DNA of 39,837 bases from Daejeonella sp. GTDB lineage: Bacteria; Bacteroidota; Bacteroidia; Sphingobacteriales; Sphingobacteriaceae. The notes under the pieces were generated by a model. The model was not told the DNA's origin and did no database searches. It was given only the letters and a program-made list of their open reading frames with translations. This document shows, one piece after another, positions 1 through 33,527 of the stretch. The DNA lies in contig JBDNGV010000396.1 in assembly GCA_041689125.1 (NCBI GenBank), positions 1 to 39,837 of the forward strand. The letters run 5' to 3'. A program made the translations under genes and the position numbers. The number at the start of each line of letters is the position of its first letter. Positions within the stretch are counted from its first letter, which is position 1.

Positions 1-474
1 AATAACGATAGAATTCCAATATTGATGCTCACTGCAATGGGTAGTTTATCTGATAAGCTCTCGGGATTTGAAATGGGTACTAATGATTATATGGTCAAAC
101 CTTTCGACTTTATGGAATTGTTAGTTAGAGTAAGATCTTTAATGAAATATTGTCCTGAAATTACAGAAAAAGAAAATATCATTCAAGTTTCGGATTTAGA
201 ATTAGATCTAAATGAAAAAATTGCTCGAAGGTGCGGTAAAGAAATTGAATTGACTGCTAGAGAATTTAGTCTTTTAGAATATTTGATGTTAAACAGGGGA
301 AAGGTGCTTTCTAAAGTAGAGATAGCAGAAAAGGTATGGGATATTAATTTTGATACGCACACCAATTTTGTAGAGGTTTACATCAATTACATCCGTAATA
401 AAATTGATAAAGGTTATTCAAATAAGTTGATTCATACGGTAGTTGGAATGGGCTATATGCTGAAACATAAATGA
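1..474 (+). CDS. OmpR/PhoB-family response regulator (CusR/ArlR-like), 5'-truncated by the window
   Basis: Frame is open from base 1 (NNDRIPILMLTA...); receiver tail GTNDYMVKPF and winged helix ELTAREFSLLEYL...TNFVEVYINYIRNKID...IHTVVGMGY. Confidence 0.95.
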   Translation, partial: NNDRIPILMLTAMGSLSDKLSGFEMGTNDYMVKPFDFMELLVRVRSLMKYCPEITEKENIIQVSDLELDLNEKIARRCGKEIELTAREFSLLEYLMLNRGKVLSKVEIAEKVWDINFDTHTNFVEVYINYIRNKIDKGYSNKLIHTVVGMGYMLKHK

Positions 475-1835
475 GTATTAGAACCAAAATGACTTTGCTT
501 TTTTTAAGCATTGTTACCATTTTATTATTAGCCTTTTGCATCACAATTTACTTCTTAAGTGAAATTCACCGACAAAATGAGTACAAAACACGCTTAAGAC
601 AAGAAGCATTAACAGCAGCAACTGTTCTATTCAATAAAGAAGAAGTAAGCCCCGATTTGCTACAACTATTGGCTAGAAATCAAATGACTGCTCTAAATAA
701 AGAAGAAATAGTTATTCTTAACAATAGAAATAAAGTTATATACCAGAGCGGTTTTGAAAATATTGATATTGAAGAATCTATTATTATAGCTATAAAAACT
801 GAGACTGAACTTTTTTGGCATCAGGATGAAATAGAAAAATATGGAATGGTTTTTACAAATAAAAATCAAAACTATATTGTAATTACTTCAGCAGTAGATA
901 AATATGGATTAGAAAAACAGAAAAATTTAGCCCTGCTTTTAAGTTTTGGAGGGATATTGGTATTAATCTTAAGCGCTATAGGTGGTTGGTTTTTTGCCGG
1001 AGGTTTGCTGAGACCAATGCAACAGATGATTAAAAAAATTGATAATATTAACGCGTCTCGCCTAAATTTGAGGCTTAGCCACAACAATAATAAAGATGAG
1101 TTAACACAGCTAGCCCTAAGATTTAATGAAATGTTAGATAGGCTTCAAAATGCATTTAATGTACAGCGATCTTTCGTTTCTCATGCCTCTCATGAATTGC
1201 GATCCCCACTTACAGCTATTACTGGTCAGATACAAGTTTCCTTACTAGCAAATGATAATGCTGATGAATTGAGACTTATGGCTAAATCTGTATTGGAAGA
1301 TGTAAATCAGTTAAATAGTCTAACTAATAATTTGTTAGACCTCACAAGCATTCATGCTGAAAATACCGACATTACAGTAACACTTGTAAATATCGTGGAA
1401 TTGTTATGGCATGTGAGAAGCGAAATTTTAAAAAAACATAGTAATTATGAAATTTTAATTGCCTTAGATGACCTTGATGAGCATTTGCCAGAAATTTATG
1501 CCAATGAACCCTTAATTTATACTGCACTAATAAACTTGGTAGAAAATGGCGTTAAATTTTCTCCCGAGCATACTGTTTATATCAAGTTGACTTTATCTGA
1601 AAATCAGGTAATCATTACCTTTCAGAATAAGACTAATGACATATCAGGATTAAAATTGGATAGTATTTTTGAACCTTTTTATAGAGGCTCAAATTCTAAA
1701 AATACAAAAGGACATGGTGTTGGGCTTCCGCTAACAATGCGAATAATTGAGCTACATAAAGGAAAATTAATTGTGCGTATTCTTAGCCAAGAACTTATTG
1801 TCTTTGAACTTAAATTGGCTAAGAACAATCTTTAG
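471..1835 (+). CDS. HAMP-domain sensor histidine kinase
   Basis: Two TM segments, HAMP (DELTQLALRFNEMLDRL), H-box SHELRSPL, N-box NLVENGVKFS, G2 GHGVGL; ATGA overlap with the regulator. Confidence 0.95.
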   Translation: MSIRTKMTLLFLSIVTILLLAFCITIYFLSEIHRQNEYKTRLRQEALTAATVLFNKEEVSPDLLQLLARNQMTALNKEEIVILNNRNKVIYQSGFENIDIEESIIIAIKTETELFWHQDEIEKYGMVFTNKNQNYIVITSAVDKYGLEKQKNLALLLSFGGILVLILSAIGGWFFAGGLLRPMQQMIKKIDNINASRLNLRLSHNNNKDELTQLALRFNEMLDRLQNAFNVQRSFVSHASHELRSPLTAITGQIQVSLLANDNADELRLMAKSVLEDVNQLNSLTNNLLDLTSIHAENTDITVTLVNIVELLWHVRSEILKKHSNYEILIALDDLDEHLPEIYANEPLIYTALINLVENGVKFSPEHTVYIKLTLSENQVIITFQNKTNDISGLKLDSIFEPFYRGSNSKNTKGHGVGLPLTMRIIELHKGKLIVRILSQELIVFELKLAKNNL

Positions 1836-1872
1836 CACACTCGGATGAGTCTATTATTAAAAGGAGTATAAA

Positions 1873-1930
1873 TTCTAATCCATTTCTAATATCAGCTTAA
1901 TGTCGGCCTAATAGCTGATCATTAGGTTTG
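1873..1930 (+). promoter_or_regulatory. Four tandem repeats at 11-bp period (candidate OmpR-family operator) followed by a Bacteroidota -7 element
   Basis: TTCTAAT 1873, TTCTAAT 1884, GCTTAAT 1895, GCCTAAT 1906; TAGGTTTG at 1923-1930 matches TAnnTTTG. Confidence 0.65.
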
Positions 1931-1968
1931 TATTGTATAAAAAATGTGTTTTAATTAAAAAAAAAGTT

Positions 1969-2754
1969 ATGAAATCTAAAACAATTCTATGCATAGCATT
2001 ATCTACTATTTTAATGGCTAGTTGCACAATCGTTAAGCAAGGCGAAGTTGGTGTAAAACGTTCTTTCGGGAAAATAAATGAAAAGCCCTTGATGGAGGGT
2101 GCTAGACTTTTCAACCCTTTTACTACAACCATTATTAAGCTTCCTACACGAACAATCAATATGGAAGTTCGCTTACCACTGCCTTCTAAGGAGGGATTAA
2201 CCGTACAATCGGAAGTATCGATTTTATACCGATTAGTTGGTAGTTACAGTCCTAAAATTGTAGAAACAATTGGTCGAAATTACGAACAGGTTATCATTTT
2301 ACCCATATTCAGATCTGCTGTTGCTGATGTTTCCTCTCAATTTTTTGCAAAAGATATGCATACTGGGCAGAGGTCTGTGATAGAGAAATCTATTAAAGAT
2401 TTAATGACGGCACAGTTAACAGATAGAGGCTTTGTCGTAGAATCTGTTTTATTAAAAACTATTATTCTACCGGTAGGATTAACCAGGGCAATTGAAGAGA
2501 AATTAGAGGCAGAGCAGGATGCGCAAAGAATGCAATTTACATTAGATAAAGAACGCCAAGAAGCCACTCGGAAAACGATTGAGGCCGAAGGAATTAGAGA
2601 TGCTCAAAAAATAATTTCTGAAGGATTATCCCCGTTGCTATTGCGTTTCAAGACTATTGAAGCATTTAATAAGCTATCTACCTCTCCGAACGCAAAAACA
2701 ATTATTACAAACGGAGAACAGCCCTTAATGTTTAATGGTGACAAACTTGAATAA
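1969..2754 (+). CDS. SPFH/prohibitin (band 7) family lipoprotein
   Basis: ATG 1969 gives lipobox LMASC; VKQGEVGVKRSFG, SKEGL, AIEEKLEAEQDAQRMQF, IEAEG are typical of prohibitin-like proteins. Confidence 0.9.
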   Translation: MKSKTILCIALSTILMASCTIVKQGEVGVKRSFGKINEKPLMEGARLFNPFTTTIIKLPTRTINMEVRLPLPSKEGLTVQSEVSILYRLVGSYSPKIVETIGRNYEQVIILPIFRSAVADVSSQFFAKDMHTGQRSVIEKSIKDLMTAQLTDRGFVVESVLLKTIILPVGLTRAIEEKLEAEQDAQRMQFTLDKERQEATRKTIEAEGIRDAQKIISEGLSPLLLRFKTIEAFNKLSTSPNAKTIITNGEQPLMFNGDKLE

Positions 2755-2859
2755 CATTCATGTCCTGTTGTTGAAATAGGTAACGTTAAATACAAAAAGT
2801 ATAATTGGACAAGCCGAACACCATTTAATGAAGTAGGCATAATTCATAGAAAATTAATA

Positions 2860-3525
2860 ATGAAAAGTATAAATCTAATTTTAGTAACACTCACAATTGG
2901 TCTTTTAGCTATCTCTTGTAACGAAGTAACAAATAATGGCAAGGAAGAAGCATAAAAAGTAGCCACACTGGCTAACGATAAAGTTTAAAAAGTAATTAAT
3001 GATTTAGGCTTAGTCTATGTTGAAGAAGGAGCACAAGACATTATCACTTATGATGAAGTGAACGCTGCACAACAGGCTTGGTGCGATGCTTTGGTAAAAA
3101 TCGGAAAGCTAAAAGAGGAAGGTGGAGATTACAAAGCTTTTGCCGAACAAGTGCTTTCAGATGCTTATAATTATGATAATGGAAAGGTGTTTTTTAAACC
3201 TACCTTGGCTTTTGGCGATCAAACATTCAGAAATGATAAAAAAGGAGCACTATCCTATTTTGTAGGTGGAGATCCGGCTTATCCCAACGACAAAGGTTTT
3301 GCATTGGCACCTTGGGTAAAAGCAAGGTATGACAATGCAGGAGATAAAAATGAGGGTATTCAAATTTATGGTTCTGTTGCCATAACCATGGGTAATGTTT
3401 GGGTAACAGGTAAAGACGGTAAAGAGGTTATGGTCGACAAAACTTGGGTATTCAGAAAAGGGAAAGATGGTAAACTACGTATCATAGTTCACAAATCTGC
3501 ACTTCCATTTAGCCCAAATAATTAA
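2860..3525 (+). pseudogene. Iota-carbonic-anhydrase-like (COG4337, SnoaL/NTF2 fold) lipoprotein interrupted by two in-frame TAA codons
   Basis: ATG 2860 reads MKSINLILVTLTIGLLAISC (lipobox) in the same frame as the 3058 ORF; TAA at 2953 and 2986; domain motifs EVNAAQQAW, FKPTLA, GALSYFVGG, DKGFAL, AITMGN, VDKTW, LRIIVHKSALP. Confidence 0.75.
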
Positions 3526-3532
3526 AATTTAG

Positions 3533-3566
3533 AGAGGCTACAATTTAAATTTGTAGCCTCTTTTTT
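3533..3566 (+). terminator. Rho-independent terminator
   Basis: AGAGGCTACAA-tttaaat-TTGTAGCCTCT followed by a T run. Confidence 0.85.
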
Positions 3567-3608
3567 AAAATGTTAATGCAAATTTTCATTTACTATAAAA
3601 AACAAAAA

Positions 3609-4262
3609 ATGATAAAGACTTCATTATTATTTCTATTGGTTTTTACCTTTCTATCTCAAGGTGTAAAAGCACAATCTAAAATAGATTCTGCCCAGTTGAA
3701 TAAAGAATTCTTTAATTTGGAGGAAGCGCTAAAAAAACCTGAGAATGTTTTTAGACTAAATTTGAGCAATCAAAACTTGCAAATCTCAGACTCTATTTGG
3801 TCTAAATTTCAAAATCTTCAATATCTAAGCTTGAGAAACGATCACCTCAAACAAATACCATCAGGTATTGGCAATCTAAAAAGTCTTAAATTTCTTGATT
3901 TGAGCGGAAACGATTTTAAAACATTACCGTCAACTTTTAGTAATTTAATAAATTTGCAAGAGTTATATTTAAATGATGATAAATACTTCCAATTACAAAA
4001 AAACATTTCTGTTTTAAGTGAATTACCTAACTTGAGATCACTTCATCTCGAAAACGATGGATTAAAAACTTTACCTAAGAATATTTATAAATTAAATCAG
4101 ATTGAATCCCTATTCCTTAATAACAATCAATTCAAGCAAATGCCTCCAGAAATTAAGGGTTTAAAGAATTTAAAGTATTTAGATTTTCACGATAATGATG
4201 TGTTAAGGCCTGCCAATCAAGAGGTTTTTCACCAAAAGTCAGGACTCAAGATTAGGTTTTAA
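3609..4262 (+). CDS. Secreted leucine-rich-repeat protein
   Basis: ATG 3609 gives a signal peptide ending VKA-Q; N-cap LEEALKKPENVFRLNLS; several LxxLxLxxN repeats. Confidence 0.9.
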   Translation: MIKTSLLFLLVFTFLSQGVKAQSKIDSAQLNKEFFNLEEALKKPENVFRLNLSNQNLQISDSIWSKFQNLQYLSLRNDHLKQIPSGIGNLKSLKFLDLSGNDFKTLPSTFSNLINLQELYLNDDKYFQLQKNISVLSELPNLRSLHLENDGLKTLPKNIYKLNQIESLFLNNNQFKQMPPEIKGLKNLKYLDFHDNDVLRPANQEVFHQKSGLKIRF

Positions 4263-4285
4263 TGTCTAGGTATGATTTTTTTAAT

Positions 4286-5059
4286 ATGAAAAATATTTTA
4301 TTTGCTGTTGTTATACTTTTATTTTCTCAATATACATACGCTCAAAATAGCCGCTCAAATACAAAAAATAGCATTGGTTGGTATAATTATTTTGGAACAT
4401 TTAAAATTTCTCAAAAAATTGGTTTTCACACAGAATATCAATTTCGAAGAAATGAAATTATTTCGGAAAGGCAACAAAGTTTACTGCGTTTAGGTGTGAA
4501 TTATCAAATCAATCCAAAAGTTCAATTAAGACTTGGTTATGCCTGGATAGAAACATTCCCTTATGGAGAAATACCTATTAACGGAATGGGAAAGGACTTT
4601 ACAGAACACCGCTTATTTCAAATGGCTACAATAGCAGATAAAGTTTCTATTATTGATTTATCACATCGTTTTATGCTGGAACAGCGCTGGGTAGGCCGAT
4701 ACTCGAATACTAATTTGACAAAAGAAGATGAATTTCCTTTGCTAAATAGATTTAGGTATATGTTACGCATTCAAATCCCATTAAAAGGAAATGAAATTAC
4801 AGACAAAACACCATACTTTGCAGTATATGATGAAATTTTGATTGGCTTTGGTAAAAATGTAAATGAAAATATCTTTGACCAAAATAGAATAGGTATTTTA
4901 TTTGGGTACAGATTTAACCCAATTATTAGAATTGAAGGGGGTTATTTAAATCAAACATTGCAGTTAGGAAGAGAAATAAACAATAGAAATGTGTTTCAAC
5001 TGAACAACGGTTTCATTCTAAACGCTAACTTTAATATTGATTTGACTAAAAAGAAATAG
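4286..5059 (+). CDS. DUF2490-family outer-membrane beta-barrel protein
   Basis: Signal peptide; WYNYFG, QSLLRLG, EHRLFQ, HRFMLEQRW, RFRY, YDEI, FDQNR, GYLNQ motifs. Confidence 0.8.
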   Translation: MKNILFAVVILLFSQYTYAQNSRSNTKNSIGWYNYFGTFKISQKIGFHTEYQFRRNEIISERQQSLLRLGVNYQINPKVQLRLGYAWIETFPYGEIPINGMGKDFTEHRLFQMATIADKVSIIDLSHRFMLEQRWVGRYSNTNLTKEDEFPLLNRFRYMLRIQIPLKGNEITDKTPYFAVYDEILIGFGKNVNENIFDQNRIGILFGYRFNPIIRIEGGYLNQTLQLGREINNRNVFQLNNGFILNANFNIDLTKKK

Positions 5060-8126: not shown

Positions 8127-9335
8127 ATGAACAGAGAATTTATAGAGAGTTCGGTAAAATGGGGTGTAAATAATGAAGGTTACTTTGGTGACTTTGGCGG
8201 AGCATATATCCCGGAAATGCTTTACCCGAATGTAGAAGAGCTTCGTAAGCGATATTTAGACATTATTTATGAGCCTGGTTTTCAGGATGAATTTCAGATG
8301 CTTCTAAGAGATTATGTTGGCAGACCTTCGCCATTATTTCATGCCGAACGTTTATCTGCAAAATATGGAACAACAATCTATCTGAAAAGGGAAGATTTAA
8401 ATCATACCGGGGCACATAAGATCAATAATACAGTAGGGCAGATCCTGCTTGCTGAAAGACTTGGTAAAAAGAGAATTATTGCTGAAACCGGAGCCGGTCA
8501 GCATGGAGTAGCAACCGCAACAGTTTGCGCTTTAAAAGGGCTGGAATGTGTGGTTTATATGGGAGAAGTTGACATCGCCCGGCAAGCACCGAATGTTGCT
8601 CGAATGAAGATGATGGGTGCAACAGTTGTACCTGCAACTTCAGGCAGTAAAACGCTTAAGGACGCTACGAATGAAGCCATGCGCGACTGGATTAACAATC
8701 CTGTAGATACGCATTATATTATTGGCTCAGTGGTTGGTCCGCACCCTTATCCCGACATGACATCCCGTTTTCAATCCATCATTTCTGAGGAAACTAAAAT
8801 TCAGCTGAAGGAGCGTACGGGATCTGAAAATCCGGATATCGTAATCGCATGTGTTGGCGGTGGCAGTAATGCCATGGGTATGTTTTACCATTTTCTGGAT
8901 GATGAAGAGGTTAGACTAATTGCAGTTGAAGCTGCAGGATTAGGTGTGAATAGTGGAGAATCTGCTGCAACTACTGCTTTAGGAAGAGAGGGAGTATTGC
9001 ATGGAAGTCGCTCGATTTTAATGCAGACAGAGGATGGACAGGTTGTTGAGCCTTATTCAATTTCTGCCGGACTGGATTATCCTGGGATAGGCCCACAGCA
9101 CGCCCATTTATTTAAAGAAAATCGTGGGGAATATGTTAGCGCAACTGATGAAGAGGCAATGATTGCAGGAAGACTTTGTGCTGAACTTGAAGGAATTATT
9201 CCGGCTATCGAAAGTGCTCATGCATTGGCACATTTAGAAAAAATGGTATTTACCGGAAAGGAGTCTGTTGTGATCTGTCTTTCAGGCCGCGGGGATAAGG
9301 ATCTTGATACCTACATGAAATACTTTAACTTATAA
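8127..9335 (+). CDS. trpB: Tryptophan synthase beta subunit
   Basis: [43 protein letters not shown]. Confidence 0.98.
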
Positions 9336-9395
9336 TTTAAAATTACCTCTTGTCTTTCCGGATTAATAATCCGGTATTTTCATATCAGAATGCTC

Positions 9396-10424: not shown

Positions 10425-11708
10425 ATGGAATTACTAATCATCACCATTTTTATTATCGGGTACGCTGCGATCGCTTTTGAGCATCCCATAAGGATCAATA
10501 AAACGGCAAGCGCATTACTCACCGGAGTATTATGCTGGGTAGTCTATATCATGAGCGCGACAGATACAGGAATTGTTTCGGCAGAGCTCTATGAACATTT
10601 AGGGCAGATATCGGGGATTTTGTTCTTTTTATTGGGGGCAATGACTATTGTTGAACTGATTGATGCTCATGACGGATTTGATGTAATAACGGCAAAAATT
10701 AAAACTTCTGATCAGCTAAAATTGCTATGGATCATCAGTATCATTACCTTTTTTCTTTCAGCGGTACTCGATAACCTGACTACTACTATCGTGATGGTTT
10801 CATTGTTGAGAAAGCTGATCAGTGAAAAGAAGACCAGAATGTTTTTTGTAAGTATGGTTGTGCTGGCCGCTAATGCAGGTGGTGCATGGTCGCCAATCGG
10901 GGATGTTACTACTACCATGTTGTGGATTGGAGGCCAGATAACTTCCGGTAGTATCATTCTCCATCTAATCTTGCCAAGTTTGGTTTGTTTGATCGTTCCA
11001 CTTATCATCCTTTCTTTTTCTATGAAGGGAAAAGTAAGTAAGCCGGATATTGTTGAAAGCACTCATATTGAAAAAACCACTACCTTTGAGAGGGGACTCG
11101 TATTGAGCCTAGGGATCGGAGCCCTTGTATTTGTTCCGTTCTTTAAAACTATTACCCATCTTCCACCATTTATGGGAATGTTATTTGGTCTGGCAATACT
11201 CTGGATTGTTACCGAATTTATACATAAGAATAAAAATGATGCCGATAAGGATGCCTACTCAGTGATGCAGGCATTAAGAAAGGCCGATGTACCAAGTGTA
11301 CTTTTTTTCCTAGGGATCCTTGTTGCTATTTCAGCTTTGGAATCCACTCATCAGCTACAGTATCTGGCTCAATGGTTAGATGCAAAGATTGGTAACCTGG
11401 ATCTCATTGTAATTTCAATAGGCCTCATGTCATCTATTGTGGATAATGTTCCTTTAGTTGCTGCCGGTATGGGTATGTATGATATGGTGACTTATCCAAC
11501 CAATCATTATTTTTGGACTTTTCTGGCCTATTGCGCCGGTGTGGGAGGTAGCTGTCTTATTATCGGATCTGCAGCGGGCGTGGCGGCAATGGGTATGGAA
11601 AAAATAGATTTCCTCTGGTATTTTAAGAATGTTTCCTGGCTCGCTCTGATCGGTTATCTTGCCGGAGCTAGTATATTTATGTTGCAGCATTATCTTTTAA
11701 ACTTTTAA
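10425..11708 (+). CDS. nhaD: Na+/H+ antiporter NhaD
   Basis: FLSAVLDNLTTTI, AANAGGAWSPIGDVTTTMLW, SSIVDNVPLVA, IIGSAAGVAAMG. Confidence 0.93.
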   Translation: MELLIITIFIIGYAAIAFEHPIRINKTASALLTGVLCWVVYIMSATDTGIVSAELYEHLGQISGILFFLLGAMTIVELIDAHDGFDVITAKIKTSDQLKLLWIISIITFFLSAVLDNLTTTIVMVSLLRKLISEKKTRMFFVSMVVLAANAGGAWSPIGDVTTTMLWIGGQITSGSIILHLILPSLVCLIVPLIILSFSMKGKVSKPDIVESTHIEKTTTFERGLVLSLGIGALVFVPFFKTITHLPPFMGMLFGLAILWIVTEFIHKNKNDADKDAYSVMQALRKADVPSVLFFLGILVAISALESTHQLQYLAQWLDAKIGNLDLIVISIGLMSSIVDNVPLVAAGMGMYDMVTYPTNHYFWTFLAYCAGVGGSCLIIGSAAGVAAMGMEKIDFLWYFKNVSWLALIGYLAGASIFMLQHYLLNF

Positions 11709-11843
11709 GCTTCCTATTAGCGGGCTAACGTGTACCCACAAGTGTTTATTTTATTTTGAACAACCGACCCTGAAGGAGTCTGTCTACCTGCTTGGATTTT
11801 ATTTAAAATAACGTCCACTGAATAATTATTCATAAATTTAAGC

Positions 11844-12029
11844 ATGAAGGTCATTTTGCTCTCTATTGTTCTTTTAGCCATTGCTTTTGCCGGCATTGCC
11901 ATTAAAATATTATTGAAAAAGAATGGTAAATTCTCTGGAACCTGCAGCAGTAATAACCCTTTATTACAAAATGAAGCCGGGGCTTGCAGCATTTGTGGTG
12001 CAAGTCGGGAAGAAAAGTGCAAATCCTAA
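11844..12029 (+). CDS. Small single-TM protein with four Cys, NqrM-like
   Basis: Hydrophobic N-terminal helix, basic linker, SGTC...CSIC...C; converges on apbE/nqr. Confidence 0.7.
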   Translation: MKVILLSIVLLAIAFAGIAIKILLKKNGKFSGTCSSNNPLLQNEAGACSICGASREEKCKS

Positions 12030-13030
12030 TTAACGTGTTTTATCTTGTTTTTAAGACTTTCGGATGTAAAGGTTTTCCAAAGTCCGTTCTCATCGTAAAT
12101 GAAATATACTTCCAGATTCAGGTCTTTATTCTCATTCAGGAATTGTTTGGATCGCAGTAAACCCATCACCATAAAGGAAGTTGCATAGGCGTCTGCAGTT
12201 ATTGCGTCATCAGCCAGTACGCTTGCGCTCAAAATATTTTGCCTGACGGGATATCCGGTATGTGGATCAAGAATATGCGCATATCTTTTTCCATCCTCTT
12301 CATAAAACTTTCGATAATTTCCGGAGGTGCACAAAGCTCTGTTATCTAGCTCTATAATCGCTTCAAGCTTCCTTTCAGATGAGGTACTTTGAAGCGGCTG
12401 ATCTATACCAACTTTCCATTTTTCCTTGTTTTTTTTGCCTTTGGCGATAAGTTCACCGCCGAGTTCTACCAGATAATTCTTGATTCCTCTTTTATCAAAG
12501 TAAGACGCCAATACATCCACCGAATATCCCTGTGCAATGGCATTGAAATCAAGCTGTATTCCTTTCTTTTCCTTAATGACTCGATTCCCATCGAGCTTAA
12601 GCATTTTATAATTCACATATTGAAGGATGCTATCAATTCGGGTACTGTTTATACTTGTTTTTTTTGTAAAACCAAATCCCCAAGCATTCGCAAGCGGACC
12701 CACAGTTACATCAAAAAGTCCTGCGGTTCTATTCGAGACTTCCATTGATTTGTTGAATACATCAATAAAATACTGATCAGGAAGTGCGTTTAAATCATTA
12801 TTGTTGATCTTGGAAATAATTGATCCAGTGAGGTAAGTAGAAAGTGACTGATCAATATCCTTTAAGATAGAATCAATGTCTCGTTTATAATTAACTGTAT
12901 CTTCAGATAAATAGGAAATATGCCAAGTTGTTCCCTGAGCCTCTCCATCGATTTTAACTAATTTCTTATTTTCGGATTTACATCCTGAAAAAACAATGAT
13001 GCCTAAAATGATTTGGATAAGGACTTTCAT
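12026..13030 (-). CDS. apbE: FAD:protein FMN transferase (lipoprotein)
   Basis: Lipobox FSGC, FDVTVGPL..WGFG, DFNAIAQGY, TSGNYRKF, HILDP, ADAYAT; directly follows nqrF. Confidence 0.95.
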   Translation of the reverse strand: MKVLIQIILGIIVFSGCKSENKKLVKIDGEAQGTTWHISYLSEDTVNYKRDIDSILKDIDQSLSTYLTGSIISKINNNDLNALPDQYFIDVFNKSMEVSNRTAGLFDVTVGPLANAWGFGFTKKTSINSTRIDSILQYVNYKMLKLDGNRVIKEKKGIQLDFNAIAQGYSVDVLASYFDKRGIKNYLVELGGELIAKGKKNKEKWKVGIDQPLQSTSSERKLEAIIELDNRALCTSGNYRKFYEEDGKRYAHILDPHTGYPVRQNILSASVLADDAITADAYATSFMVMGLLRSKQFLNENKDLNLEVYFIYDENGLWKTFTSESLKNKIKHVN

Positions 13031-13038
13031 TCCAATTA

Positions 13039-14310
13039 TTATCCTCCAAAATCATCAAATGCAATACTTTCAGGTGGAACACCCAAATCATCCAGCATTT
13101 TAAATACCGCTGCATTCATCATTGGCGGTCCGCAGATATAATATTCAAGGTCTTCAGGTGCAGGGTGATTTTTGAGATAGTTTTCAAAGAGTACATTGTG
13201 TATAAAACCGGTATAACCTGTCCAATTGTCTTCTGCAAGTGGCTCTGAAAGTGCAATATTGTACTGAAAATTTGAAAATTCTTTTTCTATGGTTCTGAAA
13301 TGTTCGGTATAAAAGATCTCTCTTGATGACCGGCCGCCATACCAGAAACTTACTTTTCTATCCCTTTCTTTCTTGGTATGGAAAAGATGGAATAAATGTG
13401 AACGAAGCGGAGCCATTCCTGCACCTCCTCCGATATATATCATCTCTTTTTTTGTTGGCTTAATATGAAAATCACCAAAAGGACCTGCAATTGTTATCTT
13501 ATCTCCTGGTTTAAGTGAAAATACGAAGGATGAGCATATTCCAGGATTTAAATCCATGAACTTTCCTGCCTGCCTGTCGAATGGAGGAGTAGCAAGCCTG
13601 ATATTGAGCATGATTATGTTCCCTTCTGCAGGATGGTTGGCCATTGAATAGGCGCGAAAAATTGGTTCTGGATTTTTCATGCGAAGATCCCAAATCTTGA
13701 ATTTGTCATAATCATCCTGAAAGCGATCATCAATTTTATACAGATCTCTTTTAAAATCAATTTCACAATCTGGAACATCAATTTGGATATAGCAGCCTGA
13801 TTGGAACTTTAGAAATTCACCTTCCGGTAGTTTTACTACCAGTTCTTTAATATATGTTGCAACATTATCATTTGAAACTACTTCGCATTCCCATTTTTTT
13901 ATACCAAAAATCTCTTCAGGAATTTTAATTTCCATATCCTGTTTCACTTTCACCTGACAGCCTAAGCGCCAGTTTTCCTGCTGCTCTTTTCTTGTGAAAT
14001 AGGGTGTTTCTGTGCTTAATATTGTTCCGCCTCCTGATAATACCTGACACCTGCACATCGCGCAGGTTCCACCACCTCCACATGCTGAAGGCAGGAATAT
14101 TTTCTTATTGGATAAGGTTGTTAGTAAGCTTGATCCGGCTTCTGTTTCAATATCTTCCTCTCCATTGATCGTTATTTTTACTAGTCCTGTAGGCATCAGT
14201 TTTTCTTTTGCCAAAAGGATAATATAAACAAGCAATAAATTGAACATTAAAAATACGACGATACTGGAAATGATCGTTGTGGTTTCAGGGGATATAATAA
14301 TCAAGTTCAT
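13039..14310 (-). CDS. nqrF: Na+-NQR subunit F
   Basis: [34 protein letters not shown]-terminal DDFGG. Confidence 0.98.
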
Positions 14311-14315
14311 CGTAA

Positions 14316-14930
14316 TTATAATTTAATTCCCATAAAGCTCATGAAACCAATCGCCATAAGTCCTGTTATAATGAAGGTTATCCCTAATCCTCTCAGCGGA
14401 TCCGGAATATTTGAATACCGAAGTTTTTCACGAATTGCCGAAAGAGCGACAATTGCCAAGAACCATCCTACACCCGAGCCAAAAGCAAAAACTGTTGCTT
14501 CGCCTAAAGTTGCATATTCTCTTTCTTGCATAAATAAGGCTCCACCTAATATGGAGCAGTTTACTGCAATAAGCGGCAGGAAAATACCTAGGCTTGCATA
14601 CAAGGCAGGTGCAAACTTTTCGACTACCATCTCAACTAACTGAACAATTGAAGCAATTGTAGCGATGAACATAATAAAACTCAGGAAACTGAGATCAACA
14701 GTGGCAAAGTCTGTTGATAACCATGCTAAAGCACCGGCTTTGAGCACAAATTTCTCCAATAAATAGCAAATTGGAACTGCAACAGATAGAACGAATATAA
14801 CAGCCATTCCAAGACCTACAGCACTTTTTACCGTTTTTGAAATTGCCAAATAAGAGCACATGCCCAGAAAATAGGCAAAGATCATGTTCTCTACAAAAAC
14901 AGCTTTAATAAACAGGTTTACATGTTCCAT
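14316..14930 (-). CDS. nqrE: Na+-NQR subunit E
   Basis: [30 protein letters not shown]. Confidence 0.97.
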
Positions 14931-14938
14931 GAAATTTT

Positions 14939-15619
14939 TTATTTAGCCTCAATTAATTTTTTATTTCTGCTTCGTTGTACCCAGATAATTATTCCAACAA
15001 CAATCAGTGCCATTGGGGGCATAATTACTAGTCCGTTATCAAAATACCCCATTTCATAAGCTATTTCCGGAATTATTCTAAAACCCATAAGCTCACCTGA
15101 ACCAAGTAATTCTCTGATTATGGATACGATTACGAGAATTACGCCATAGCCAAGACCATTGCCAATACCATCAATAAAAGAGGGCCAGGGTTTATTTGCC
15201 ATCGCAAAAGCTTCTAACCTACCCATTACTATGCAATTGGTGATGATTAATCCAACAAATACTGAAAGCTGTTTACTTACATCATAAACAAAGGCCTTTA
15301 AAAACTGATCGACTAAAATTACCATGGCCGCAACTACGGCTAACTGCACAATGATCCGGATCCTGTTAGGAATAATATTTCTAATAATTGAAATTATGAG
15401 ACTTGAAAATGCAGTTACAACCACTACAGCAAGAGCCATTACAATGGAGGGTTGCATTTTAACAGTAACTGCAAGGGCTGAACAAATTCCTAATACCTGT
15501 ACAGTTATTGGATTGCTGTTATTTAAGGGGTCATAAAGAAGCCTTTTATTTTTAGGAGAAAATAAAGGCTCTTTTATGCTTTTAACCTTTTCAGGGGCTG
15601 TACTTATTTCATTGCTCAT
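14939..15619 (-). CDS. nqrD: Na+-NQR subunit D
   Basis: NPITVQVLGICSALAVT, GLIITNCIVMGR. Confidence 0.97.
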   Translation of the reverse strand: MSNEISTAPEKVKSIKEPLFSPKNKRLLYDPLNNSNPITVQVLGICSALAVTVKMQPSIVMALAVVVVTAFSSLIISIIRNIIPNRIRIIVQLAVVAAMVILVDQFLKAFVYDVSKQLSVFVGLIITNCIVMGRLEAFAMANKPWPSFIDGIGNGLGYGVILVIVSIIRELLGSGELMGFRIIPEIAYEMGYFDNGLVIMPPMALIVVGIIIWVQRSRNKKLIEAK

Positions 15620-16367
15620 TGTTCTGGTATTTAGTTCTATATTCTGATGTTCGAGTATTTATCCTTTTGAAATAGGGGATATAATTGCTCAAGGTTCTTT
15701 GAAGCATTTCTGAAACCCCATCACTGGTTATCGTTGCACCTGAAACAGCATCAACACCATGCGGATTTGTTGAACCTGTACTTCCCTTAATTACTTTTAC
15801 AGATACAAAGTTCCCTTCATTATCCAGGATTTTTTTTCCTTTAAATTTCTCTTGGAATCTTCCGGTCTCAATTTCAGCACCAAGACCCGGTGTTTCACTT
15901 TTATGGCCAAAACTTACACCATTCACAGTGTTCATATCCTCTTCCAAGGCAATAAAACCCCATATTGGCCCCCATAATCCTTTTCCTCTTACCGGAATGA
16001 TATAAAAGGTTTTGTTTTCTTTCTCACACACAAACAATGGGAATAGCTCTTTATCTTGATTACCAGTCTTTGCTTTGTCCAGTTCCTTTTTCAAATCAAT
16101 ATCAAATGCGGCAGTTCCTCCCGTTACAGGTTCTCCTTTAGTGTTCAATACAATTTGCCCGGTGATGAACTTTGAGAAACTTTTCTCTGCATCATCAGAA
16201 GTACTGTTAATTCCGACACTGCTTAAAATATTTTCCATTTTTTCAATCCGGGTATTGCGTGCCTGATAAGGCCCCAGAACGATAGCCGCTACAGACAACA
16301 TGATGGCAATAACTATCACCATAACAGATGAAAACAGAAAAGTAGCTTTATTGCTGTCTTTATGCAT
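15609..16367 (-). CDS. nqrC: Na+-NQR subunit C
   Basis: GKGLWG, ETPGLG, flavinylation motif DAVSGATIT. Confidence 0.97.
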   Translation of the reverse strand: MHKDSNKATFLFSSVMVIVIAIMLSVAAIVLGPYQARNTRIEKMENILSSVGINSTSDDAEKSFSKFITGQIVLNTKGEPVTGGTAAFDIDLKKELDKAKTGNQDKELFPLFVCEKENKTFYIIPVRGKGLWGPIWGFIALEEDMNTVNGVSFGHKSETPGLGAEIETGRFQEKFKGKKILDNEGNFVSVKVIKGSTGSTNPHGVDAVSGATITSDGVSEMLQRTLSNYIPYFKRINTRTSEYRTKYQNNEQ

Positions 16368-17532
16368 TTTGCTTAATTATGGATCTTTCTAACCTTCTTT
16401 TAATATTTGCAGCCACTATATAATGGTCAATAAGTGGTGCCATAACATTCATAAATAAAATGGATAACATCATTCCTTCGGGGTAGGCAGGATTAAATAC
16501 CCTGAACATGATAGCAAATAATCCAATCAGGAATCCATAAATGTATTTGCCGGTATTGGTTTGAGCCCCGCTAACCGGATCGGTAGCCATGAAAATAGCC
16601 CCAAAGGCGAAGCCCCCTAAAACCAGGTGATGAACGGGATTAATTTGCATAAGCGTATTAAGCCCGAAGAAATTAAAAACTAGAGCCATTAAAAACCCAC
16701 CAACAAATACAGATAACATAATTCTCCAACTCCCTATTCCAGTAAATAAAAGTAATGCTGCCCCTATCAGACATGCGAGTGTAGATGTTTCACCAACAGA
16801 ACCCGGGATAATACCGATGAAAGAATCCCATATTCCCGGAATTTTATCGGCCAATCCAGCAGCGGCATCGCCTAGTGGTGTAGCTCCACTAAAACCGTCA
16901 ACTACTTCTTTCCCTTTTTCTGAATCCGTATTTATCCATACTTCATTTCCTGAAATTTTGGTAGGATAAGCAAAAAAGAGGAATGCCCGTGCGGTCAATG
17001 CCGGATTCAGGATATTCATTCCGGTGCCACCAAAAACTTCTTTCCCAATAATTACTGCAAAAACTGTGGATACTGCAACCATCCACAAAGGAACGTCAAC
17101 CGGCATCACCAGCGGGATTAGCATTCCGGAAACCAAAAAACCTTCATTGATGGTATGTTTACGGATGATCGCGAAAATGAACTCTACTGCTAAGCCCGAG
17201 GTGTATGAAACAATGACCAGTGGAATCACTTTTACAGCACCAAAACCAAAATTATCCATGAATGAGGCATCTGAAATTCCAAAGGCCAAGTGATGCTGAA
17301 AACCTACGTTCCACATGCCGAAAAGAAGGCAGGGTACCAATGATAAAATAACCAATACCATGGTGCGTTTCAGATCAATTGCATCTCTTACATGAGCTCC
17401 TTTTGAAGCTGTTGTATGATCCGGAACAAAAAGGAAGGTCTCAAATGCGTTGAAGGCCGGGTAGAATTTTTCAAGTTTTCCGCCTTTCTCAAAGTCAGGC
17501 TTTAGCTTATCCAATAATTTTCTAAGTAGCAT
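16360..17532 (-). CDS. nqrB: Na+-NQR subunit B
   Basis: HVRDAIDLKRTM, KEVFGGTG, DGFSGATPL, FMATDP, YPEG. Confidence 0.97.
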   Translation of the reverse strand: MLLRKLLDKLKPDFEKGGKLEKFYPAFNAFETFLFVPDHTTASKGAHVRDAIDLKRTMVLVILSLVPCLLFGMWNVGFQHHLAFGISDASFMDNFGFGAVKVIPLVIVSYTSGLAVEFIFAIIRKHTINEGFLVSGMLIPLVMPVDVPLWMVAVSTVFAVIIGKEVFGGTGMNILNPALTARAFLFFAYPTKISGNEVWINTDSEKGKEVVDGFSGATPLGDAAAGLADKIPGIWDSFIGIIPGSVGETSTLACLIGAALLLFTGIGSWRIMLSVFVGGFLMALVFNFFGLNTLMQINPVHHLVLGGFAFGAIFMATDPVSGAQTNTGKYIYGFLIGLFAIMFRVFNPAYPEGMMLSILFMNVMAPLIDHYIVAANIKRRLERSIIKQNA

Positions 17533-17695
17533 CAAGTTAAATTATTTTAGGATAATCTTTGGCTTCTTGCCTAAATTATCGGATTCAAACTTATTTCTTA
17601 TGAACTAATAGCTATCGTATAATTAAGCTTCGGAATGTATATTTTTGATCTGTTTAGTATCTATTTGAGGATCTTTTTAATCTATTTTTTCTTTT

Positions 17696-19054
17696 TTAAT
17701 TCAATTCTTTTTGAATGATTTCAATTCCACGTTTAATTATTTCCTGTGATTTAATCTTTGAAGTGCAAACAAACTCACAAAGCGCAAAGTCTTCTTCCAC
17801 CACTTCATAAATGCCAAGTTGCTCCATCATTTCAATATCTTCAATCAATATCGATTTTAATAGTTGAACCGGATAAATATCCATAGGGAATACCTTTTCA
17901 TATTGACCGGTTACTACAAATGGTCGTTCTTCACCATGTAGGTTGGTATTTAAATTGTATTTTTTGTTGGAATTCAGCCATGAAAAAAAGCTACGCGACA
18001 TACTGAATTTATCTAGTCCTGGTGCCAACCATCCCATAAATTCAGATTCTCTACCTTCTGGAATAACAGTGATTTGTGAATCGAAATAACCTAAAAATCC
18101 ATCTTCCTGAATTTGATTGCCCGATAAAACATTTCCACTTATGATTCTATTCTCTCCAGTTTTTAGTCCGCCATCCTTAAGAATATTTTTTACTGAACTT
18201 CCGATTACAGTTTTATAGTATTTAGGATGTGAAACCTGGGAACCGGTCAGGGCAATAATTCTCGTGGCATCGTATTTGCCATCCGAAAATAGTTTTCCAA
18301 TAATTAGAACATCCTGTGGATTTACATACCATACCACCTCACCCTTATTTACTGGGTCAATGTGATGGATCTGAACACCAATATTTCCGGCTGGATGTGG
18401 ACCTGAAAATTTGTTGAGAATAACTCCTTTGGAATTCTTAAATATGGATGTTGCTTCTTTTGATCCATCTATATTTAAGTGAATATTTCCATTTGTTAAT
18501 TTGGTTAAGGCATTCAAGCCTGTTTGGAAAGTTTCTTCATGAACTCCCTGCATTATAAAATCAATGTCAGGTGCAAGTGGATTGCTGTCAAAAGCAGATA
18601 TAAAGATGGATTTCGGTGTTTCCGAAGGATTTGCAATAATTCCAAATGGCCGCTGGCGTATGAAGGGCCACAAACCATAATTTAATAATGCTTGAATGAT
18701 ATCTTCCCTGCTTAATTCAGCAGGATTTGACTTATCAATTTCAAGATATTTAATTTCTTTATCTGCCAGTATTTTTATCTCCAGTATTTTTCGCTTTTCA
18801 CCACGACGTACTTCGATAATTTCTCCACTAACAGGAGAACTGAATTTGAGCGATTCATTGTTTTTGTCAAAAAACAGGATGCTTCCTGCTAAAACTTCGT
18901 CGCCTTCACTTAATAGCAATTTTGGAGTAACTCCCGGAAAATCGGAAGGTTTTATTGCAAATACTTCAGCTAATGGAAGTTTTGACAATTGTTTATTGGC
19001 TTCTCCGGTAAGCCGAATATTTAAGCCATTTTTTATTTTAATATATTCCGGCAT
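17696..19054 (-). CDS. nqrA: Na+-NQR subunit A
   Basis: SPVSG, RGEKR, GPHPAG, EEDFALCEFVCTSK. Confidence 0.97.
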   Translation of the reverse strand: MPEYIKIKNGLNIRLTGEANKQLSKLPLAEVFAIKPSDFPGVTPKLLLSEGDEVLAGSILFFDKNNESLKFSSPVSGEIIEVRRGEKRKILEIKILADKEIKYLEIDKSNPAELSREDIIQALLNYGLWPFIRQRPFGIIANPSETPKSIFISAFDSNPLAPDIDFIMQGVHEETFQTGLNALTKLTNGNIHLNIDGSKEATSIFKNSKGVILNKFSGPHPAGNIGVQIHHIDPVNKGEVVWYVNPQDVLIIGKLFSDGKYDATRIIALTGSQVSHPKYYKTVIGSSVKNILKDGGLKTGENRIISGNVLSGNQIQEDGFLGYFDSQITVIPEGRESEFMGWLAPGLDKFSMSRSFFSWLNSNKKYNLNTNLHGEERPFVVTGQYEKVFPMDIYPVQLLKSILIEDIEMMEQLGIYEVVEEDFALCEFVCTSKIKSQEIIKRGIEIIQKELN

Positions 19055-19411
19055 ACAGTAAAATTTAAAACAACTTGAATTGTAATTTGAATCTTATTGG
19101 TCTCCTGATTATGATTTTGGGCTTAGCAAATCATTTATTAAAACATGGATCTATCTACTTATGGTCAATTTGCAATATACATTATATTTAATAAGAAAGA
19201 AATTTTATCATCTTAAAATCTATTCTTTATCAAAAATTTATTATGTTTAATAAAAAATGAGCAGTATCCTTTTCAATTTTTCTTATTAAAATCGCCCTAT
19301 TGACACCATAAATTAAGAATACTCTTACAGAGCTTACATGAAAGAGCGATTAAATTGCGTTTAGAATATTACCTTTTTATATAGGATTATACATTCAAAA
19401 AAACAATTTTT

Positions 19412-19843
19412 ATGGGAGCAGTCAGCAAAATTTTAGAGAGGAAAGGTAATTTTATCTTTTCTATTTCTCCAGACACAAGTGTTTTTCAGGCGCTTGAAAT
19501 TATGGTAGATAAAAATGTCAGTGCCCTTCTGGTAACAGAAGCCGATAAACTAATTGGGATATTTTCTGAGAAAGATTACGCACGTAAAGTTATTCTAAAA
19601 GGGAAAGCATCGAAGCAGACCAAGATCAGAGAGATCATGTCAGATAGTGTCATTTTCGTAGCACCCGAAAATTCCATCGATCATTGTATGCAATTAATGA
19701 CAACTAAATTCATTAGGCATTTGCCTGTTGTCTCAGAAGAGAAATTAGTTGGGATTATATCAATTGGGGATGTGGTAAAACATATTATAGAAGAGCAAAA
19801 GTTTATTATTGAAAATATGGAACAATATATTGCAGGTCAATAG
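19412..19843 (+). CDS. Stand-alone CBS-pair protein
   Basis: IGIFSEKDYARKV, IRHLPV, GIISIGDVVK. Confidence 0.92.
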   Translation: MGAVSKILERKGNFIFSISPDTSVFQALEIMVDKNVSALLVTEADKLIGIFSEKDYARKVILKGKASKQTKIREIMSDSVIFVAPENSIDHCMQLMTTKFIRHLPVVSEEKLVGIISIGDVVKHIIEEQKFIIENMEQYIAGQ

Positions 19844-19884
19844 TTGTTATATGCTTTTAGGTTGATAACAAGAATATATTCAGG

Positions 19885-21117
19885 TTAATTGCTTTGAACC
19901 AAGAAGGCAACTTGCTTTCTAGATAATCTAGTCTTTCTAAGTCGTTTTTTTCTCTTTTTGTTTAGAGAAAAAAGGAAGAAATATCCTGATACACCAGCCA
20001 AAATAGATGCCACAAGTATTGAAAATTTTGCCTCAATATTAAAAATTGGATCATTGAAGGAAAGCAAAGCAATGAAAATCGACATGGTAAATCCAATGCC
20101 GGCAAGCAGCCCTAATCCGAAAACATGTTTCCAGCTTGCTCTTGATGGCAAAGTAGCAATTCCTGATTTAACCGCTATCCATGAAAACAGTGTTACCCCA
20201 ACTGGTTTACCTATGATTAAGCCAAAGATTATACCTAAGCCAAGTGGGCTCGTAAGCCCATTGATCATTTCACTTTCAAATCGGATATTCGTATTGGTAA
20301 GAGCAAATATAGGCATGATCAGAAAATTCACAGGCTTGACGATTATATGTTCTAAGTTTTCGAGGGAAGAAGTGCTTTTTACCGGATTTGAAGTTATTGT
20401 TAAAGCCAATAAAACGCCTGCTATTGTTGCATCAATACCTGAATGGTGGATAAAATACCATAGAAATATGCCAGGTATGATATAGAAAAATAGCTTTTTC
20501 ACTCCCAAATAGTTCATTGCTATTAGTAAAGTCATAATACCGGCAGAGTACAATAACTGCATCCAATGTAATTCATTGGTATAAAATATTGCAATAACAA
20601 GAATAGCACCCAGATCATCTACAATAGCTAAGGCAGCAAGAAAAACCTTCAAAGAGGCCGGTACCCTTTTACCTAGTAGTGATAATACACCAAGTGCAAA
20701 TGCAATGTCGGTAGCCATAGGGATACCCCAACCTGAAATGGTTTCCTGGCTTAAATTGAATAAAAAATAAGTCCCTGCAGGCAGAAACATTCCACCTAAT
20801 GCAGCAAAAATGGGCATTGCAGCTTTTCTAGGAGTTGAGAGTTCTCCTTCAATGATTTCACGCTTAATTTCGAGGCCAATTAGTAAAAAGAATATAGCCA
20901 TCAAGCCATCATTTATCCATTGGGATAATGAATATTCTAATTGCAGATTTAAATTGCTATATCCAAATTCTGCTGCAAGAAGTTTCTCAAAACTTTCACC
21001 AAGAGTGGAGTTTGCAATTGATAATGAAATAACAACAGAGAAAATAAGTATGACACCGCCAATTTGTTCAGAACGAAAAAAGTTACGAAATGGTTTTAAG
21101 TTTATTGCTTGAGCCAT
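19885..21117 (-). CDS. nhaA: Na+/H+ antiporter NhaA
   Basis: WINDGLMAIFF, ATDIAF, AIVDDLGA, GKPVG, GIGFTMSIFI. Confidence 0.96.
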   Translation of the reverse strand: MAQAINLKPFRNFFRSEQIGGVILIFSVVISLSIANSTLGESFEKLLAAEFGYSNLNLQLEYSLSQWINDGLMAIFFLLIGLEIKREIIEGELSTPRKAAMPIFAALGGMFLPAGTYFLFNLSQETISGWGIPMATDIAFALGVLSLLGKRVPASLKVFLAALAIVDDLGAILVIAIFYTNELHWMQLLYSAGIMTLLIAMNYLGVKKLFFYIIPGIFLWYFIHHSGIDATIAGVLLALTITSNPVKSTSSLENLEHIIVKPVNFLIMPIFALTNTNIRFESEMINGLTSPLGLGIIFGLIIGKPVGVTLFSWIAVKSGIATLPSRASWKHVFGLGLLAGIGFTMSIFIALLSFNDPIFNIEAKFSILVASILAGVSGYFFLFSLNKKRKKRLRKTRLSRKQVAFLVQSN

Positions 21118-32187: not shown

Positions 32188-33527
32188 TTAAAAGGTACTC
32201 GAGTTTTTATAAATAAATATCGAGCTTGTTGGATGAATTTCAGTATTGAAATTAGGCACCGGAATTGAAATATAAAAGGTGCTACCCTTTCCAAGGGCGC
32301 TTTCAAACCAGATTCTGCCACCCTGCATGTCGTTAAATTCTTTACTTAAATTAAGTCCCAATCCAACACCTTTTTCGTTCTTTGTACCAAAAGAAGATTC
32401 TGCTTTTAGACTGAATATGGAATTTTTAATTTTATCTGACATTCCTATACCATTATCGCTATTTTGATTACATATTTTGGATAATTAGAGTCTACATCTA
32501 GTTTTATATTCCCTCCATTTGGGGTAAACTTGATCGCATTACTTAAAATATTACGAATGACAAGTTGTAACATATTTTCATCAGCCAAGACCTTTATTTC
32601 GGGGTCAATATCGAATGTTAATGCAATTTGTTTGGCATTAGCAATCGATTGAAAAACTTTGATTACAGGAATGAGGGTATTACTCAAATCAATCTGCTTT
32701 TTATTAGGAGTAATTCCATCCATTTGCGAAGTAGACCACATCAAAATATTGGATAACATATTATCCGTATTTTGGGTCATTTCTATTAGATCGTTTTGTA
32801 TTTCCTGCCAATTATCTTTTGCGGGATCAAGAAGTGAAAGTATTTCTAAATAACCTTTAACATTAGCCAGTGGAGCTCTCAGATCGTGAGAAACTATAGT
32901 AAATAATTTATTCTTTGTACTATTTATCCTTTCCAGATCAATAGCCTTAGCTTCAAGCAAACTTTGGCTTATGTTGTAATTCTTTTTTATGTATCTCAAA
33001 CCTATCAGAATGGTCAGAATACTTAATAAATAAGTACCAATCATATCCCCGAAACGAAACTCAAGCCCCATCTCAAGCTTATCAACCAATCCGGGGTTTA
33101 GATATTCGCTCAAAGGTAGACTGATAGCCACAACTAAATTAAAGCTTATAAAAAAACCAGTATTCTTTTGGCTTTGAGAGTGATATAACCAAAAAAAAAT
33201 CGCAACGAGTAATAATAAACTTGGTTCCTGAATTTCGGAATTGTAAAAATAGTTTATTATGATAATGATATGGATAATGAATATCGAGAGCAAAGGACTT
33301 ATTTGTGTCAGATGTCTGAATCTTGATAAGTAGTAAAGTGTAGATTGAGTAATTAAAGCTATAGCAGAAAGTAGTGCTGAGACTTGAAGACCTAAAAATA
33401 GATTCAGGGGAACCAAAATGGATAGTACAAAGAAAGCTACTAAACAAAAGGAATGAAATATTCTCGATTCCAATGAGAATTCATCATTTGCTCCTGTTAA
33501 ATAGTACCAATATTTATTAATTAACAA
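32188..33527 (-). pseudogene. Membrane sensor histidine kinase, frameshifted at the G1 box
   Basis: SHDLRAP and NILSNAIKFT in the upstream frame; SDNGIGMS, GVGLGL, GKGSTF in another frame; 1-nt loss near 32460. Confidence 0.85.

Follow-up and report, generated by a model that had tools for sequence, protein, structure and literature searches.

What does an OmpR-type two-component system control when the genes that follow it encode a protein resembling a carbonic anhydrase (CA) and an orphan outer-membrane barrel? The question is raised by the first 5,059 bases of a contig of Daejeonella sp. (JBDNGV010000396.1). The window, i.e., the whole stretch of 39,837 nucleotides that was analyzed, is contig C396 of the source genome, G000, from base 1, so that the window start is also a contig edge. 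On one strand it carries, in this order, the 3′ part of the regulator gene, a HAMP kinase gene, and genes for an SPFH lipoprotein, a CA of the iota class, a leucine-rich repeat (LRR) protein and a DUF2490 barrel; a convergent YitT gene and then trp genes lie 3′ of DUF2490. A preliminary description had proposed an envelope system for sensing or capturing inorganic carbon. The answer that we favor, and to which we give an even chance of being right, is that this is an accessory, AT-rich cassette in which an autoregulated two-component system likely activates an envelope operon that, when intact, would act against CO2 shortage or high pH; this genome has a broken copy of the CA gene. The intact cassette thus fits a role in the capture or handling of inorganic carbon, whereas the sensing of CO2 was not borne out. 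The regulator-kinase pair and the repeat operator that had been described were both confirmed (Table 1). Four co-directional genes had been said to carry signal peptides or lipoboxes (identified by eye); this holds for the SPFH, LRR and DUF2490 genes, and the CA-like gene is interrupted by two in-frame TAA codons.

Inorganic-carbon genes near iota-CA and DUF2490 genes

The neighborhoods of iota-CA genes were analyzed within a 6-kb radius at 82 loci, which comprise the best 80 of 185 GTDB relatives plus 2 more and were not dereplicated. DUF2490 was found at 46 of them, SPFH at 26, LRR at 16, TerC at 9, the kinase at 8, SbtA and isocitrate dehydrogenase at 7 each, beta-CA at 6 and SulP at 5, so that any of SulP, beta-CA or SbtA was present at 12 loci; alpha-CA was not scored in these counts. 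When the survey started from the barrel (60 of 211 matches fetched, roughly every other one of the 120 top-ranked rows), SulP, beta-CA or DabAB was observed at 14 of the 60 loci and at none of 20 control stretches, each 20 kb long (Fisher p 0.012, with kin that are not independent). In the genus of the window, all seven fetched DUF2490 orthologues follow SulP and beta-CA in operons, and these orthologues share 61-65% identity with their own best match among the sampled loci. The earlier remark that DUF2490 genes often lie near CAs and bicarbonate transporters was therefore correct. At L095 and L237, LRR and DUF2490 accompany a beta-CA instead of an iota-CA.

The iota-CA family is rare, with members in 8 of 401 class genomes, and DUF2490 (PF10677) is present in 102 of 121 class genomes, a tally that includes one unpublished genome (G124). 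Elsewhere in the source genome there are genes for SulP and beta-CA (contig C344), SbtA (C418), phosphoenolpyruvate (PEP) carboxylase and rhodopsin; RuBisCO was not found in this assembly, which is 94% complete. As for the surroundings of these genes, SbtA stands alongside TetR and an ABC/HlyD/OEP-like exporter, the SulP-beta-CA pair lacks the DUF2490 gene that comes next in congeners, and contig C81 carries a TerC that is 89% identical to the cassette-type TerC. A LysR gene with CbbR among its best matches (below the cut-off) recurs at iota-CA loci (L043, positions 8471-9391, and 10 others), often with isocitrate dehydrogenase, DUF6671 and SbtA.

Predicted fold of the DUF2490 barrel

The DUF2490 model (mfdd708c4e761, window 4343-5056) had a pLDDT of 96, and folding from the single sequence gave a pLDDT of 30. 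The top-ranked folds were tied: NanC (Z 14.8 over 186 aligned residues, a whole-chain match), VhGalP (14.8), PcoB (14.2) and KdgM (13.8). DSSP lists 11 strands in the model, and we take NanC and KdgM to be 12-stranded; if the 11 strands are real, DUF2490 would be an odd-stranded barrel, which is unusual among bacterial outer-membrane proteins. In 99 sequences R138 was invariant, and R35, E88, R109, E113, R136, E164 and R182 were nearly so; the barrel strands hold eight conserved Arg versus five conserved Glu/Asp. The conserved Arg and Glu are mostly at polar strand positions that are predicted to face the lumen, and the conserved Arg would suggest selectivity for anions.

A profile search of PDB sequences with DUF2490 returned weak OmpG/OmpA matches only, and VDAC matches, which had the top E-values in Foldseek, were set aside (TM-score about 0.17). 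Complex prediction with DUF2490, LRR and the intact iota-CA of L243 scored 0.31 versus a mark of 0.32, and atlas searches returned clusters for LRR and DUF2490 only. DUF2490 is without established function in the accessible text of PMC4827864, and a preprint (10.64898/2026.07.29.741452), in the portion available, reports a buried Arg/Glu/Tyr network in a DUF2490 protein of unknown function.

Operator and promoter

The pattern of the operator (best unit TTCTAAT) has two sites in the genome, one 5′ of the regulator gene and one 5′ of the SPFH gene, and none in each of three shuffles. This pattern was built from the two sites themselves, and therefore the real support is conservation: the operator was conserved in relatives (20 rows listed across related loci), and a TAnnTTTG box, which we take to be the Bacteroidota -7 consensus, was located 9-11 bases downstream in 16 of the 20. 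A looser pattern gave 1+1 matches, and so did the reversed control. In the Emticicia locus L063 the repeat stands separately 5′ of TerC, of an iota-CA/DUF2490 unit and of an SPFH/LRR unit, and in L073 it is directly 5′ of iota-CA. The repeat finder overlooked the 7-bp units, a sigma-70 scan returned 35 sites versus 29 by chance, an Rfam search gave no match, and no RNA data set was listed as carrying the locus. The two-component control that had been proposed for the block is supported by these positions: the system is likely autoregulated and likely controls the operon jointly, because the operator precedes both the regulator and the operon. The repeats cover the -33 position, which suggests, by analogy with PhoB, that the regulator is probably an activator.

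Proposed function of the intact cassette

In the reading that we favor, the phosphorylated regulator would bind at the -33 region, where the four repeats lie, and activate the -7 promoter. The lipid-anchored iota-CA would hydrate CO2 to bicarbonate and a proton, which would keep carbon in and buffer the periplasm, and DUF2490 would carry bicarbonate or another small anion through the outer membrane. Bicarbonate would then be imported for PEP carboxylase by SulP and SbtA, whose genes lie elsewhere, in a heterotroph that has a rhodopsin and in which no RuBisCO was found. The SPFH lipoprotein would stabilize or organize the membrane under the same stress, with the LRR protein as a possible adaptor. 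The likeliest signal would be alkaline pH, or its effects on the envelope, and not CO2 itself; high pH depletes dissolved CO2 and also stresses the membrane, and would thus give CA, anion channel and SPFH a sensor in common. The accessible text of PMC8425729 describes that in Gram-negative bacteria a periplasmic CA supplies bicarbonate transporters. Neither CA nor SPFH has at its N-terminus the surface-export signal C-X-K-(D/E)2 given in the available part of PMC5080379, so that, as judged from sequence, both proteins probably face the periplasm. Since the inner-membrane and cytoplasmic carbon parts are encoded elsewhere in the genome, an exported CA would be dispensable.

Carbon handling or membrane protection

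Several observations weigh against this reading. The loci are related by descent, so that the counts overstate independence, and the regulator near iota-CA is interchangeable (TetR at 12, LysR at 11 and the kinase at 8 of the 82). No inner-membrane carbon transporter lies within block 1-5059, and this copy of the CA gene is broken. The SPFH subfamily is a common one, found in 80 of 401 genomes, and in none of its 29 fetched non-self loci was iota-CA within 1.5 kb. The copper transporter PcoB ties with NanC as a fold match for DUF2490. DUF2490 is also present in VTC/DUF4956 clusters (7 of 60: L129, L130, L132, L134, L135, L137 and L139) and in sulfate-assimilation clusters (4 of 60: L102, L106, L136 and L142). 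In the DUF2490 tree, which, like that of the kinase, is a quick one, these copies are separated from all carbon-linked copies by a branch with a support of 99. Copies of another separate clade, at L118 and L119, lie in what appear to be molybdenum-cofactor clusters. The family may consist of oxyanion channels with substrate-specific clades.

The kinase data also count against a CO2 sensor. Its close clade (58-90% identity) comprises 13 distinct loci, in 12 of which SPFH comes next; the remaining contig ends just after the operator. In the ten with sequence past SPFH, LRR was present in eight and DUF2490 in three, and iota-CA was intact in five, broken in two and absent in three. The CA gene has decayed in L246 and L235 and is missing from L251-L253, with SPFH kept. 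SPFH is thus the most constant target of this clade. Even so, iota-CA, intact or as a remnant, was found in 7 of these 10 loci, though the family is so rare in the class. In the wider family (32-41% identity; 40 of 45 matches fetched) none of the 40 kinase loci had a nearby carbon gene, and the neighbors included SLAC1 (6 of 40) and an RND gene (4 of 40). Kinases of a second clade, with an identity of about 28-31%, likewise lie 5′ of SPFH and iota-CA, with a similar repeat. Because SPFH is always kept, the CA is often lost and the CA is broken here, CO2 sensing is unproven; a signal of pH or envelope stress would fit the kinase data equally well.

These data would also fit a general envelope-stress system, in which membrane protection by SPFH (with LRR) is the true target and iota-CA and DUF2490 are captured passengers being lost. 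We consider this explanation rather unlikely. SPFH and LRR are neighbors without a CA in L213 and L218, and in the accessible text of PMC8581546 the flotillins of Bacillus subtilis belong to the sigma-W regulon, which is triggered by alkaline shock and other membrane stress. It does not account well for the presence of SPFH beside iota-CA under three regulator types and across three well-supported SPFH clades, although a single origin was not rejected (p-AU 0.10) and independent recruitment is not established, nor for the operator standing separately 5′ of iota-CA in L063 and L073.

The SPFH protein matches Band_7 (PF01145, E 1e-26; 94.6 bits versus a cut-off of 23.6). The LRR subfamily was found in 8 of 401 genomes, and its seven non-self loci carried beta-CA and DUF2490 (2), a decayed iota-CA (1), SPFH (1), a cassette-type TetR (1) or none of these (2). 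Nearly all of 25 aligned LRR members end in a G-x-K-I-R-F-like strand (window 4230-4259), which resembles a beta-signal or a PDZ ligand and is possibly a docking strand.

The interrupted iota-CA gene

The COG4337-like identity that had been assigned was upheld by a match to PDB 7c5v (E 1e-41). Residues corresponding to T106, Y124, H197 and S199, which mutagenesis showed to be needed in all2909 (accessible part of PMC8132391), are present here and invariant in 61 homologues. The C-terminal HHSS motif is replaced by HKSA (58 of 84 rows) or HKSS (26 of 84), with the two tested residues of the motif retained. NCBIfam NF047901 scored 171 bits, and 172 with the intact gene of L243, below the cut-off of 350.

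The frame that opens at ATG 2860 encodes a lipobox, then meets TAA 2953 and TAA 2986, and then continues into the catalytic domain, which is open from GTG 3058. The periplasmic CA-like lipoprotein of the preliminary description does not apply to this copy, which is probably without a periplasmic CA, for the two codons cut the lipobox from the catalytic domain; in L243 lipobox and catalytic domain share one frame. Of 82 homologues, 81 have the lipobox Cys, and at both stop positions the residue found most often is Gln; CAA stands at both in L243 and in a relative from X4 (depth 4.7). An assembly error was ruled out, since contigs of X1, X2 and X3 match the window across both codons; X1 or X2 may be the source, and X3 belongs to another study and differs at three upstream bases only. 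A genome-wide recoding of TAA was also ruled out, with internal stops in 2 of 228 genome matches and no suppressor anticodon among the 24 tRNAs found.

When the gene was compared with that of L243, 7 non-synonymous changes, both stops included, were observed in the 23 linker codons 21-43, and 4-5 non-synonymous versus 10-11 synonymous changes, none rare in the family, in the 177 codons 44-220. This clustering fits one recent killing event or, less likely, re-initiation. Most likely the gene is a young pseudogene, a conclusion in which we have reasonable confidence. A rather unlikely but possible explanation of the stops is that the gene has been retargeted, translation restarting at GTG 3058 (or ATT 2995) to give a cytoplasmic CA. 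The constraint on the catalytic codons favors it, as does the location of both stops in a linker that holds 9 of the 95 sites one step from a stop. Against it, there is no in-frame ATG, GTG 3058 lacks the A at -3 that is a positive determinant in the available text of PMC6847099, and a start there would truncate the conserved beginning of the first helix. Furthermore, linkers also vary fast between intact genes (e.g., 8 versus 4 changes, L017/L021), a single recent recombination or mutation burst accounts for the pattern, and the fully decayed copies of L246 and L235 indicate that CA loss is recurrent.

In runs X1, X2 and X4 other organisms carry an iota-CA allele that is without 81 linker bases, in frame (window 2926-3010), so that the linker is dispensable. 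Across several orders of Bacteroidota the iota-CA domains share 89-95% identity (L004-L083), and one copy comes from a bin of Methylomicrobium (L081); this near-identity would reflect very strong constraint, gene transfer or mis-binning.

The signal of the kinase

A stronger version of the carbon reading holds that the kinase is a dedicated periplasmic sensor of CO2/bicarbonate or alkaline pH that induces an outer-membrane capture unit, consisting of a metal-free lipid-anchored CA, an Arg-lined and possibly odd-stranded bicarbonate channel, an SPFH scaffold and an LRR adaptor; we regard it as improbable. Weakest of all, and disfavored also as the metal response that the preliminary description had named as a refutation, is a heavy-metal system of the CusRS/CzcRS type, with a metal-free CA that substitutes for Zn enzymes and a PcoB-like barrel: the top NCBIfam matches are heavy-metal regulator and kinase models, PcoB ties at Z 14.2, RND genes are neighbors of 4 of the 40 kinases from the wider family, there is a TonB receptor upstream, and in L063 the operator also precedes TerC, but the TIGR01386/TIGR01387 scores are below their cut-offs (153 versus 293 bits, and 230 versus 279 for the full L243 regulator), the sensor domains (n=11) have 0-2 His, none invariant, 1-2 Met and no Cys, no efflux gene (RND, P-type ATPase) was seen in close-clade loci, and the conserved charges of the barrel are mostly Arg.

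Genomic setting of the cassette

The visual impression that the block is more AT-rich than the trp/nqr genes was upheld: its GC content is 32.0%, versus 38.3% for those genes and versus 38.0 +/- 2.1% for 462 same-size windows of the genome, 0.9% of which are equally low. The 5′ half of the regulator gene is on contig C285, which overlaps the window by exactly 141 bases, and the joined layout, with a whole regulator gene, was seen in metagenome contigs L242, which has the same allele, and L243, whose kinase is 90% identical. Of 54 other genomes in the genus, 4 have the kinase together with SPFH. YitT-trp is kept across the genus and the genes upstream of it vary; L076 and L243 have the cassette at this site, and it was within 1.5 kb of YitT in none of 21 other fetched YitT loci. 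The low GC, the patchy presence and the varied neighbors indicate that the cassette is accessory and sits at a variable site. Within it (Table 1), a terminator-like hairpin separates iota-CA from LRR and may reduce read-through into LRR and DUF2490.

Table 1. Features of the cassette, in window coordinates
Feature	Position	Strand	Evidence or remark
OmpR-family response regulator, 3′ part	1..474	+	Pfam Trans_reg_C and Response_reg
HAMP sensor histidine kinase, 454 aa	471..1835	+	periplasmic domain of ~120 aa without invariant His
Operator, four 7-bp units with 11-bp period; predicted regulator binding site	1873..1912	+	pattern count in genome; conservation
-7 promoter box TAnnTTTG	1923..1930	+	10 bases 3′ of last repeat
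SPFH/prohibitin-like lipoprotein, 261 aa	1969..2754	+	Band_7; prohibitin E 2e-15
Iota-CA (COG4337-type) lipoprotein gene, interrupted by TAA 2953-2955 and 2986-2988	2860..3525	+	PDB 7c5v match
Terminator-like hairpin between iota-CA and LRR	3533..3561	.	called on - strand; T run also follows on + strand
Secreted LRR protein, 217 aa, small subfamily	3609..4262	+	conserved C-terminal G-x-K-I-R-F-like end
DUF2490 outer-membrane beta-barrel	4286..5059	+	E 1e-46; conserved Arg and Glu

Upstream of the regulator, contig C285 carries, besides a second copy of the operator, genes for a TonB-dependent receptor, a membrane protein of 293 aa and an NmrA-like protein (450-478, 609-2870, 3277-4179), in a region that is equally AT-rich (32%). 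Farther along the window, a CitMHS-family antiporter, presumably NhaD-like, is clustered with nqr genes and NhaA in a sodium and pH homeostasis region (10425-21117). A gene for a membrane histidine kinase (32188-33527, - strand) is probably broken, its ATPase domain seemingly split across the open reading frames 32445-33527 and 32188-32442.

Comparison with known systems

The literature search returned no description of this cassette, and no link of DUF2490/PF10677 to carbon uptake, within a reach that excluded subscription journals and bioRxiv supplements. The cassette offers testable roles for an orphan barrel, for an orphan sensor of Bacteroidota whose operator is defined and for a clade of Bacteroidota iota-CAs that has a variant motif; the damaged copy in this genome limits its significance. 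If the kinase were a dedicated sensor, the cassette would give heterotrophs a step of inorganic-carbon uptake at the outer membrane, for which that search found no description.

It is not a self-contained uptake operon of the DAB/SbtA/SulP type, as no inner-membrane transporter lies in 1-5059, and it is not a member of the CusRS/CzcRS group, from which scores below the cut-offs, the sensor domain without a His/Met site and the lack of adjacent efflux genes set it apart. The B. subtilis sigma-W regulon includes the flotillins FloA/FloT together with YdjI, SPFH proteins induced by alkaline and membrane stress (PMC8581546, accessible part); here, in contrast, a prohibitin-like SPFH lipoprotein of a diderm is under two-component control and has a CA as a neighbor. 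Rhodopsin-bearing flavobacteria take up bicarbonate for anaplerosis via SulP/BicA, SbtA, CA and PEP carboxylase (PMC3595038), the gene set that the source genome has elsewhere, and the available text of that study describes no outer-membrane step, exported iota-CA or two-component control.

The CA is like all2909 of Anabaena PCC 7120 (COG4337, PDB 7c5v), the metal-independent iota-CA of PMC8132391 (accessible part), in its sequence match and in the four residues needed for catalysis; it differs in being encoded as a lipoprotein with a conserved helical linker, in having HKSA/HKSS and not HHSS, in its heterotrophic host, in its NCBIfam score (171 of 350 bits) and in its interrupted gene. The DUF2490 barrel shares with the acidic-solute channels NanC, KdgM and VhGalP (2wjr, 4pr7 and 8xua) a small barrel with conserved Arg (Z 13.8-14.8; root mean square deviation 2.9-4.1). 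In contrast to these channels, to which it has 7-11% identity and a TM-score of about 0.45-0.5, its model has 11 strands, leaves the first 9-12 residues of their chains unmatched, and its gene neighbors are inorganic-anion genes.

The closest regulatory parallel that we compared is ArsRS of Helicobacter pylori, which controls the periplasmic alpha-CA HP1186 for pH defense (PMC2736386, in the part available). There, as would be the case here, an OmpR-type two-component system acts on a periplasmic CA, but in the cassette the CA is of another class, the periplasmic sensor domain has no invariant His (0-2 His), and the regulon here would be a local one with two promoters that adds a barrel, SPFH and LRR.

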